Source: Escherichia coli (GTDB lineage Bacteria > Pseudomonadota > Gammaproteobacteria > Enterobacterales > Enterobacteriaceae). Taken from it: a stretch of 64,000 nt of DNA. The stretch lies in assembly GCF_003334255.1 (NCBI RefSeq), contig NZ_QOWU01000010.1. The stretch is one strand, 5' to 3'. Under the pieces are notes generated by a model, which was not told the DNA's origin, did no database searches, and saw nothing but the letters and a program-made list of their open reading frames with translations. The position numbers and the translations under genes are program-made. This document shows positions 2,081-3,337 of the stretch, one piece after another; position 1 is the stretch's first letter; each line of letters begins with the position of its first letter.

Positions 2081-3337
2081 ATGGGATCTGATGCGAAAAA
2101 CTTGATGAGCGACGGGAACGTGCAAATTGTTAAGACCGGCGAGGTCATTGGCGCGACGCAACTTACTGAAGGCGAGTTGATTGTTGAAGCTGGCGGAAGA
2201 GCCGAAAATACCGTGGTCACGGGGGCTGGCTGGTTGAAAGTGGCAACCGGTGGGATCGCCAAATGCACACAGTACGGTAACAATGGCACGCTATCGGTCA
2301 GCGATGGTGCCATTGCCACAGATATTGTTCAGTCCGAGGGAGGCGCAATTAGTCTCTCTACGCTCGCTACGGTTAATGGCCGCCATCCCGAAGGTGAATT
2401 CAGCGTTGATAAAGGTTATGCCTGCGGTTTGTTGCTGGAAAATGGCGGTAACCTGCGTGTACTGGAAGGACATCGCGCGGAAAAAATCATTCTCGATCAA
2501 GAGGGCGGCCTGTTGGTTAATGGGACAACCTCAGCGGTCGTGGTAGATGAAGGTGGTGAATTGTTGGTGTATCCAGGTGGGGAAGCCAGCAATTGTGAGA
2601 TTAATCAGGGCGGCGTTTTTATGCTGGCCGGGAAAGCCAGTGATACGTTGCTTGCTGGTGGCACCATGAATAATCTCGGTGGTGAAGACTCTGACACTAT
2701 TGTTGAGAATGGATCCATTTATCGTCTGGGGACGGATGGCCTTCAGCTCTACAGTTCCGGTAAGACGCAAAACCTGTCCGTGAATGTGGGTGGTCGGGCT
2801 GAAGTGCATGCCGGTACGCTGGAAAACGCGGTAATACAAGGTGGGACAGTGATCCTGTTGTCACCCACCAGCGCGGACGAAAATTTTGTCGTAGAGGAAG
2901 ATCGCGCACCGGTTGAACTGACCGGGAGTGTTGCATTACTGGACGGCGCTTCAATGATTATTGGTTATGGCGCAGAGCTGCAACAATCAACGATTACTGT
3001 ACAGCAGGGCGGTGTGTTGATTCTAGACGGCAGTACGGTAAAAGGTGACAGTGTCACTTTCATTGTTGGTAACATCAATCTGAATGGTGGAAAACTGTGG
3101 CTGATCACTGATGCGGCAACGCATGTGCAACTGAAAGTGAAACGCCTGCGCGGAGAGGGAGCGATTTGCCTGCAAACCAGTGCAAAAGAAATTTCACCTG
3201 ACTTCATCAATGTGAAAGGGGAAGTTACCGGGGATATACACGTTGAGATAACAGATGCCAGTCGGCAAACTCTGTGTAACGCTCTGAAATTACAGCCAGA
3301 CGAAGACGGGATTGGCGCAACGCTCCAGCCTGCGTAA
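2081..3337 (+). CDS. ydhQ: YdhQ, autotransporter-adhesin-related protein (passenger-like beta-helix repeats, no obvious C-terminal barrel), 418 aa
   Basis: ORF translation rich in G/T/V/N repeats (GGxxxN.. motifs) typical of AIDA-like passenger domains; synteny next to mdtK. Confidence 0.88.
   Translation: MGSDAKNLMSDGNVQIVKTGEVIGATQLTEGELIVEAGGRAENTVVTGAGWLKVATGGIAKCTQYGNNGTLSVSDGAIATDIVQSEGGAISLSTLATVNGRHPEGEFSVDKGYACGLLLENGGNLRVLEGHRAEKIILDQEGGLLVNGTTSAVVVDEGGELLVYPGGEASNCEINQGGVFMLAGKASDTLLAGGTMNNLGGEDSDTIVENGSIYRLGTDGLQLYSSGKTQNLSVNVGGRAEVHAGTLENAVIQGGTVILLSPTSADENFVVEEDRAPVELTGSVALLDGASMIIGYGAELQQSTITVQQGGVLILDGSTVKGDSVTFIVGNINLNGGKLWLITDAATHVQLKVKRLRGEGAICLQTSAKEISPDFINVKGEVTGDIHVEITDASRQTLCNALKLQPDEDGIGATLQPA
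3045..3057. other. matS-consensus site (GTGACAGTGTCAC) for MatP, inside ydhQ
   Basis: Exact match to 13-bp palindromic consensus GTGACRNYGTCAC read directly in the sequence. Confidence 0.6.

Follow-up and report, generated by a model that had tools for sequence, protein, structure and literature searches.

The gene ydhQ occupies positions 2081 to 3337, on the plus strand, of a 64,000-nucleotide stretch of Escherichia coli DNA (contig NZ_QOWU01000010.1 of assembly GCF_003334255.1); this whole stretch is referred to as "the window", and all positions are counted from its first nucleotide. By its predicted fold, the product, YdhQ, is a passenger of the autotransporter type, but neither of the two modules that define such a secreted protein is present in it. 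Judging from its coding sequences, ydhQ is kept intact by selection across Escherichia and was acquired in that lineage on an inserted segment. We consider it probable that YdhQ is an orphan, exapted passenger: a soluble β-helix with no type Va secretion route, most likely cytoplasmic, that has a binding or scaffolding function. The gene, its annotation, its absent signal peptide, and its β-helix relationship were already known. What is added here is that the truncated form is under purifying selection throughout the genus and that other genera lack the inserted segment, along with the truncation points as mapped on a complete relative and the location of the most constrained segments.

Predicted fold and constrained segments of YdhQ

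The coding sequence is an intact open reading frame (ORF) of 418 codons plus stop (ATG start; stop at 3335-3337). It appears in the ORF list and in RefSeq, where the product is named "AIDA repeat-containing protein", and its product matches the NCBIfam equivalog NF007409/PRK09945 from end to end (residues 1-418 on model positions 1-418) with 942.5 bits against a cutoff of 830. The protein has a mass of 43 kDa, an isoelectric point of 4.42, and a net charge of about -27. An earlier interpretation made without database searches (the sequence-only reading) had described a 418-residue product rich in Gly/Thr/Asn repeats. The length and the repeats are borne out; the enrichment is clear for glycine (15.1%) and only moderate for threonine (7.9%) and asparagine (5.5%).

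The same reading had proposed a β-helix of the passenger type and had named profile searches and structure prediction as checks; the outcome of both agrees with it. In Pfam, AIDA-type strand-loop-strand repeats (PF16168) span residues 9-211 (2105-2713, plus strand), with the best match at residues 99-159 (E 2.2e-22), and the NCBIfam repeat model TIGR04415 scores 43.9 bits against a cutoff of 30. Further toward the C-terminus, a partial pertactin-like match, putatively a junction module of the autochaperone type (PF03212, E 2.5e-5), covers residues 329-403 (3065-3289, plus strand) but only model positions 1-78 of 121; the NCBIfam model BafA_Cterm also matches in part (model positions 25-203 of 643). 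The AlphaFold2 (AF2) model, for which nine orthologues served as input, is all-β, with a mean predicted local distance difference test score (pLDDT) of 84.9 and strand pairs every ~19 residues, which are taken as the rungs of a β-helix. A BLOSUM autocorrelation gave no lag above threshold; the 19-residue period is that of the strand pattern in the model and of TIGR04415. When this model was compared to the Protein Data Bank (PDB) with Foldseek, passengers of Ag43 (7koh, 7ko9, 7kob, 4kh3) and of TibA (4q1q) ranked at the top with a probability of 1.0, and a sequence search of the PDB returned the same Ag43-family (7KO9, 7KOH, 4KH3, 7KOB) and TibA (4Q1Q) entries. As modelled, then, YdhQ is a right-handed β-helix of the autotransporter-passenger type. 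A non-β-helix fold, set beforehand as the result that would overturn this assignment, was not found.

Two segments of the protein are candidates for functional surfaces. The first is the most conserved core, residues 91-140 (2351-2500, plus strand), in which nearly all residues are invariant in the nine-sequence alignment and the regional ratio of non-synonymous to synonymous divergence (dN/dS, or omega) is 0.01-0.02. This core is homologous to the hairpin-containing motif of Ag43-type proteins: it aligns to the Ag43 stretch ATVTG.NRLG.F.V..G.A..VVLE.GGRLDVL.GH.A with about 50% identity. The second is an acidic junction loop at residues 261-280 (SPTSADENFVVEEDRAPVEL; 2861-2920, plus strand), where low confidence in the model (pLDDT 52-62) coincides with strong conservation (regional dN/dS 0.03-0.06, many invariant columns). 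We also observed a conserved basic strand, K352-V-K354-R-L-R (residues 352-357; 3134-3151), in this strongly acidic protein. Its K352 and K354 are invariant, and the strand is absent at the aligned positions of the YcgV-like and Ag43 relatives described below. It is a possible candidate for a site of contact with a ligand or nucleic acid.

Absence of both secretion modules

A type Va autotransporter carries an N-terminal Sec signal peptide and a C-terminal α-helical linker followed by a 12-stranded β-barrel. Neither was found in YdhQ, as the sequence-only reading had noted. The N-terminus (MGSDAKNLMSDGNVQIVKTGE) is polar: within the first 70 residues, the 11-residue Kyte-Doolittle mean peaks at 1.25 (position 45), and across the whole protein the highest 19-residue mean is 1.28, such that there is no hydrophobic segment. 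An in-frame TAA at 2075-2077 lies two codons 5' of the ATG and therefore blocks any N-terminal extension. At the other end, no autotransporter β-barrel (PF03797 or TIGR01414) was detected in Pfam, or in NCBIfam at E values up to 0.1. Only 40 bp separate the ydhQ stop codon from that of the convergent gene mdtK, and this spacer is occupied by a hairpin at 3344-3369 that is terminator-like on both strands and thus common to the two genes; no space is left for a barrel-coding remnant. When nine autotransporter relatives were used as tblastn queries on the flanks (1774-2140 and 3300-3420), no remnant of a signal peptide or of a barrel emerged from the noise (all E > 0.3).

Both modules are missing in all nine orthologues as well. 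With both of the ends needed for type Va secretion absent, YdhQ would be unable to secrete itself. The suggestion that it depends on a partner encoded elsewhere found no support: the locus has no adjacent partner gene, and the protein has no signal peptide with which to enter a type V route. For the latter reason, we also rejected, as the leading explanation, a split autotransporter with a separate partner barrel; lacking a signal peptide, YdhQ has no access to a partner in the periplasm or outer membrane.

Relation to complete autotransporters

No close paralogue of YdhQ came out of a HMMER search against 1.84 billion representative proteins. Beyond YdhQ itself and its metagenomic fragments, the best match was a 1534-residue Ag43/Cah-like autotransporter, with 38% identity over the repeat units. 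Ag43 (Flu/Cah) is the best match in both sequence (phmmer E 9e-26) and fold, and its passenger, alpha43, shares with YdhQ the β-helix of 19-residue strand-loop-strand units. Ag43, however, is equipped with a signal peptide (52 residues) and a beta43 unit that includes the barrel, and its passenger is longer; YdhQ has neither signal peptide nor barrel. The scores of YdhQ on the Ag43/Cah and AIDA-I equivalog models (NF033177, NF033176) fall far short of the cutoffs, at 88.8 bits versus 1200 (over model positions 249-456 of 948 only) and 54.2 bits versus 1200, respectively. AIDA-I and TibA, which are self-associating and heptosylated, have PF16168 repeats and the "heptosyltransferase target" signature TIGR04415 in common with YdhQ. 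They are full autotransporters that are borne on plasmids or islands in pathotypes, whereas ydhQ is chromosomal, belongs to the core genes of the genus, and has a product devoid of secretion modules.

The only relative found to be colinear with nearly all of YdhQ is a protein (P0106) that, along with a second one (P0126), we take from recognition of its sequence to be YcgV-like, YcgV being an autotransporter of E. coli K-12. Residues 2-392 of YdhQ align with residues 72-486 of P0106 at 28% identity, and the alignment includes a junction motif, L.G.G...(D)..NV.G...GD..v.vtD, present as LRGEGAICLQTSAKEISPDFINVKGEVTGDIHVEITD in YdhQ and as LSGNGNFYMRTDMANHQSDQLNVTGQATGDFKIFVTD in P0106. The YcgV-like protein then runs on into a TIGR01414 barrel domain (304 bits, residues 439-771), within the start of which the alignment ends. 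At the opposite terminus, P0126 opens with a hydrophobic, signal-peptide-like sequence, but YdhQ does not. Measured against P0106, YdhQ starts ~60 residues into the mature passenger and stops ~26 residues after the junction motif. The pertactin-type module is cut correspondingly: YdhQ fits its first 78 positions, and the last ~43 are replaced by a tail. This tail, the last 25 residues ending in KLQPDEDGIGATLQPA, is family-specific yet conserved. According to the comparison with P0106, the part that is missing corresponds to a G.Y.Y.L hairpin.

In terms of this alignment, YdhQ is a passenger that begins a few rungs past the signal peptide and breaks off roughly two thirds into the junction module. 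Comparison with longer homologues, which the sequence-only reading had recommended, thus located the truncation points on P0106, although the flanks hold no trace of the missing parts. That reading had regarded ydhQ as a possible remnant of a larger autotransporter gene. Given the colinearity with the YcgV passenger, descent from a longer autotransporter is plausible; decay, which the word "remnant" would imply, is not in evidence, as detailed below. YdhQ would accordingly be an acidic, soluble β-helix descended from a passenger of the AIDA-I/Ag43/YcgV type. Of that passenger it would have retained roughly twelve rungs of 19 residues, a single hairpin motif, and the initial two thirds of the junction module. 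Disrupted autotransporter pseudogenes of E. coli (the cluster of P0067) likewise consist of AIDA-repeat fragments without complete secretion modules. These, however, form many unequal fragments of 150-1165 residues, whereas the length of YdhQ is fixed, its start is conserved, and its omega is ~0.1.

Conservation and purifying selection

Of 5426 complete E. coli genomes, 5420 cover at least 80% of a 1.8-kb query around ydhQ, with identities of 97.5-100%. The product is exactly 418 residues long in E. ruysiae, E. marmotae, E. albertii, E. whittamii, and other Escherichia. The most divergent orthologue, of 419 residues (an extra residue follows L8) and 71% identity, belongs to a lineage represented by L013 and L002 (Sequence Read Archive runs SRR26188688 and SRR31578456), in which mdtK has 83.6% nucleotide identity to that of E. 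coli, the corresponding values being 87-89% in the named Escherichia species and 80% in Salmonella. Even this lineage retains ydhQ with the convergent mdtK downstream; in E. albertii and E. marmotae, ydhQ lies between a tRNA-Val pair and mdtK. All nine orthologous coding sequences are intact, with 418 or 419 codons, and all adjoin mdtK. Their N-terminal sequence, MGSD.KNL, is invariant.

By the method of Nei and Gojobori, the dN/dS of ydhQ between the orthologues and the window is 0.09-0.13, with bootstrap 95% upper bounds no greater than 0.165. Synonymous divergence (dS) is 0.65-1.03 in ydhQ, versus 0.51-0.86 in the neighbors ydhR, mdtK, ribE, and cfa; it is saturated in the 71%-identity lineage. 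Omega is 0.01-0.03 for mdtK, ribE, and cfa and 0.06-0.09 for ydhR. YdhQ therefore evolves several times faster than the first three of these proteins and at a rate close to that of ydhR, but far from neutrally. Because dS is not reduced while non-synonymous change is suppressed about tenfold, the constraint acts on the protein and not on the DNA. Neither the frameshifts and stop codons of a pseudogene nor a dN/dS near 1 was observed. Hence ydhQ is kept intact by selection across Escherichia and is not a decaying remnant. As a separate matter, ydhQ is listed in a positive-selection scan (PMC9110714). We also note rare E. coli variants of YdhQ (P0007-P0015), 370-402 residues long, that cover the full query; they suggest either occasional in-frame internal deletions in the repeat region or assembly artefacts.

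Origin of the segment

In the window, ydhQ is flanked on one side by two tRNA-Val(GAC) genes, valV and valW, which are divergent from it (1616-1692 and 1697-1773, together spanning 1616-1773, minus strand; found by ARAGORN and Rfam), and on the other by mdtK (3378-4751, minus strand; ORF list and RefSeq), which encodes a multidrug and toxic compound extrusion (MATE) efflux transporter. A scan of genome contigs with two short peptide patterns, MGSD[AE]KNL and VNGRHPEG, recovered five Escherichia loci only. Since absence from such a scan is weak evidence, the syntenic site was checked directly in three other genera. Homology of the window to the Salmonella, Enterobacter, and Scandinavium genomes ends at 1848. 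Only ~140-150 bp lie between the mdtK stop codon and the first tRNA-Val gene in Salmonella enterica, Enterobacter, and Scandinavium, and tblastn with YdhQ found nothing in these genomes. On this comparative evidence, positions ~1849-3377, present in Escherichia and absent at the same site in the other genera, were inserted in the Escherichia lineage, on that side of the tRNA genes where their promoter lies.

This segment of ~1.5 kb, bearing ydhQ, thus entered the genome of an Escherichia ancestor between mdtK and the promoter of valV-valW, and purifying selection on the protein would have held the gene in exactly its present form since then. The G+C content of the segment is normal (~0.50-0.53), and a search around it for target-site duplications and terminal inverted repeats gave only short repeats at chance level. 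On the other (3') side of the tRNA-Val pair, Salmonella has type III secretion genes (Bac_export, FliP, SepQ, and the type III secretion ATPase; L009 7835-13362), which are presumably those of Salmonella pathogenicity island 2. Enterobacter has type VI secretion genes there (TssF, TssG, and SciN; L010 9791-13374). These occupants mark the locus beside mdtK as a recurrent site of island insertion, with ydhQ on the opposite, promoter side.

The leader of ydhQ and an embedded matS site

Among five aligned lineages, the final ~85 bp before the ydhQ ATG are conserved, and the ~100 bp further upstream are not. This 5' leader (1996-2080, plus strand) contains the in-frame TAA mentioned above and two GGA motifs, at 2011-2013 and 2071-2073, the second of which sits in the Shine-Dalgarno region (AAAGGAA); that region and the start codon are conserved. 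The ydhQ mRNA has been listed as a target of CsrA with GGA motifs in its 5' untranslated region (PMC5389547), and a peak of FlhDC binding, obtained by systematic evolution of ligands by exponential enrichment (SELEX), was located in the spacer between ydhQ and valV (PMC9962212). We infer that CsrA probably restrains the translation of ydhQ at the GGA-containing leader. A scan for a sigma-70 consensus promoter passed none for ydhQ. By eye only, a weak, unvalidated candidate (TGGATA-16-TACACT, ~2010-2037) can be discerned inside the conserved leader.

The gene also hosts a matS site, as had been recognized previously. The 13-bp palindromic consensus GTGACRNYGTCAC is matched exactly at 3045-3057 (GTGACAGTGTCAC, in codons G322-T326), and a second exact copy (GTGACACTGTCAC) lies at 44267-44279, ~41 kb away; the number expected by chance is 0. 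The two sites are consistent with a location of the window in the Ter macrodomain. An exact matS is found in six fetched loci of ydhQ orthologues. Among eight aligned sequences, the site departs from the consensus by one mismatch in an E. albertii locus and is missing from the 71%-identity lineage. The site would seem to be a passenger of the ydhQ coding sequence that serves chromosome organization and not YdhQ.

Cytoplasmic scaffold or surface adhesin

The proposal that synthesis and folding of YdhQ most likely take place in the cytoplasm, and that it would stay there as a binding scaffold, finds some accord in the literature. A 2026 paper on a display toolkit calls YdhQ a "leaderless autotransporter" that is negative in SignalP 6.0; in the same paper, a pFAST-YdhQ fusion without a signal peptide gave cytoplasmic fluorescence, and apparent surface activity was seen only with an exogenous signal peptide (PMC13101318). 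YdhQ has been seen in whole-cell proteomes (PMC6561319), copurified with EF-Tu (PMC2672614), and was recovered among 17 unannotated proteins as RNA-associated by orthogonal organic phase separation (OOPS; PMC11066096). More tentatively, this surface-evolved type V passenger may have been exapted for an intracellular job, which, given the last two observations, could be on ribosome- or RNA-associated complexes. The working surfaces of such an exapted passenger would be residues 91-140, the loop at 261-280, and the basic strand K352-x-K354-R-x-R.

Several points weigh against these proposals. We found no localization of the native, untagged protein in the literature. EF-Tu is a common contaminant of copurifications, and an acidic protein is unlikely to bind RNA directly. 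Strains deleted for ydhQ grow normally and have served as a neutral integration site or parental strain (bioRxiv 10.1101/2023.03.28.534373), so that what the gene is selected for does not show under laboratory conditions; and the scaffold mechanism is drawn from fold and conservation only. Further, secondary sources (PMC9110714, citing Roux et al. 2005) state that ydhQ contributes to, or is needed for, early adhesion, which would fit a surface location, and YdhQ is listed among the COG3468 proteins of extracellular-vesicle proteomes.

The two latter points favor a different explanation, namely that YdhQ is a surface or extracellular adhesin exported non-classically (by lysis, in vesicles, or through the barrel of another protein), which could, for example, bind Ag43-type passengers on neighboring cells. 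It also has in its favor that YdhQ shares the fold class of Ag43, AIDA, and TibA, and that the links to CsrA and FlhDC would fit a regulon for a switch of lifestyle. Against it stand the absence of signal peptide and barrel in every orthologue and the lack of an adjacent partner gene. Further, the self-association interface of Ag43 is in the N-terminal part of its passenger, and YdhQ aligns not to that part but to the middle and lower part. The display experiments can be read both ways. Fusions of a signal peptide to YdhQ surpassed scaffold-less constructs in apparent surface activity; without an added signal peptide, however, the fusion stays cytoplasmic, and agarase shows no external activity (PMC13101318). 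The accessible text of that paper is silent on how a barrel-less YdhQ would be anchored and does not exclude leakage (PMC13101318). Taken together, we regard the adhesin explanation as unlikely, though it is the main rival.

Far less credible is the notion that ydhQ is a neutral fragment of an autotransporter pseudogene that simply has not yet decayed. Both functional ends of an autotransporter are indeed missing, E. coli has other broken autotransporter genes, such as those of the P0067 cluster, and the deletion of ydhQ has no reported cost in growth. But at a dS of ~0.7-1.0, a neutral ORF of 1.25 kb would have gained stop codons or frameshifts, whereas the nine orthologues are intact with a low omega; the start codon, Shine-Dalgarno region, and leader of ~85 bp are conserved, and the protein has been detected in proteomes. 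Least probable of all is conservation of the segment for a role at the level of DNA (binding of MatP to matS, or spacing of the valVW promoter) with an incidental ORF: the gene does harbor a perfect matS that most orthologues keep, and the valVW promoter region abuts the segment, but matS amounts to 13 bp of a 1257-bp gene, the ORF persists in the lineage that has lost the site, and the pattern of substitution indicates constraint on the protein. Both of these explanations are contradicted by the selection data.

Other features near ydhQ

The RefSeq gene order at the locus is ydhR, two tRNA-Val genes, ydhQ, mdtK, ribE, and cfa. A PADLOC search for defense systems gave no match. In an Rfam scan of positions 1-7000, only the two tRNAs and a match to the "bacterial antisense RNA HPnc0260" were found. 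The latter (1492-1654, plus strand; 112 bits versus a gathering score of 59) is outside ydhQ; it overlaps the beginning of ydhR, and the first tRNA-Val gene lies antisense to it. At the edge of the window (1-1077), a fragment of an IS3-family transposase (ORF 102-548, plus strand), which RefSeq annotates as IS1203-like in genomes that match, abuts ydhS and truncates it. The truncated ORF (430-1077, minus strand) encodes 215 residues, versus 534 for the product at the ydhS position in E. marmotae (L003); the annotated ydhS of E. coli G1/2 is 1605 bp long. A 1100-bp query of this region is covered to at least 80% in at most 11 of the 5426 complete genomes.

Implications

ydhQ is an uncharacterized core gene of the best-studied bacterium. 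Its product is routinely called an "adhesin-like autotransporter" and has been used as a scaffold for display, though it is without both defining secretion modules. Since the truncated form is under purifying selection and the insertion is specific to the genus, we argue that this label is misleading and that a real function exists; these facts also offer a concrete target for experiments on localization and interaction. The practical consequences are modest. We suggest the annotation "leaderless, barrel-less AIDA-repeat protein" and advise some caution when the ydhQ deletion is treated as a "neutral" locus. If YdhQ does act inside the cell as proposed, it would exemplify what has rarely been documented: a passenger of an autotransporter domesticated in the cytoplasm and kept for the whole history of the genus.

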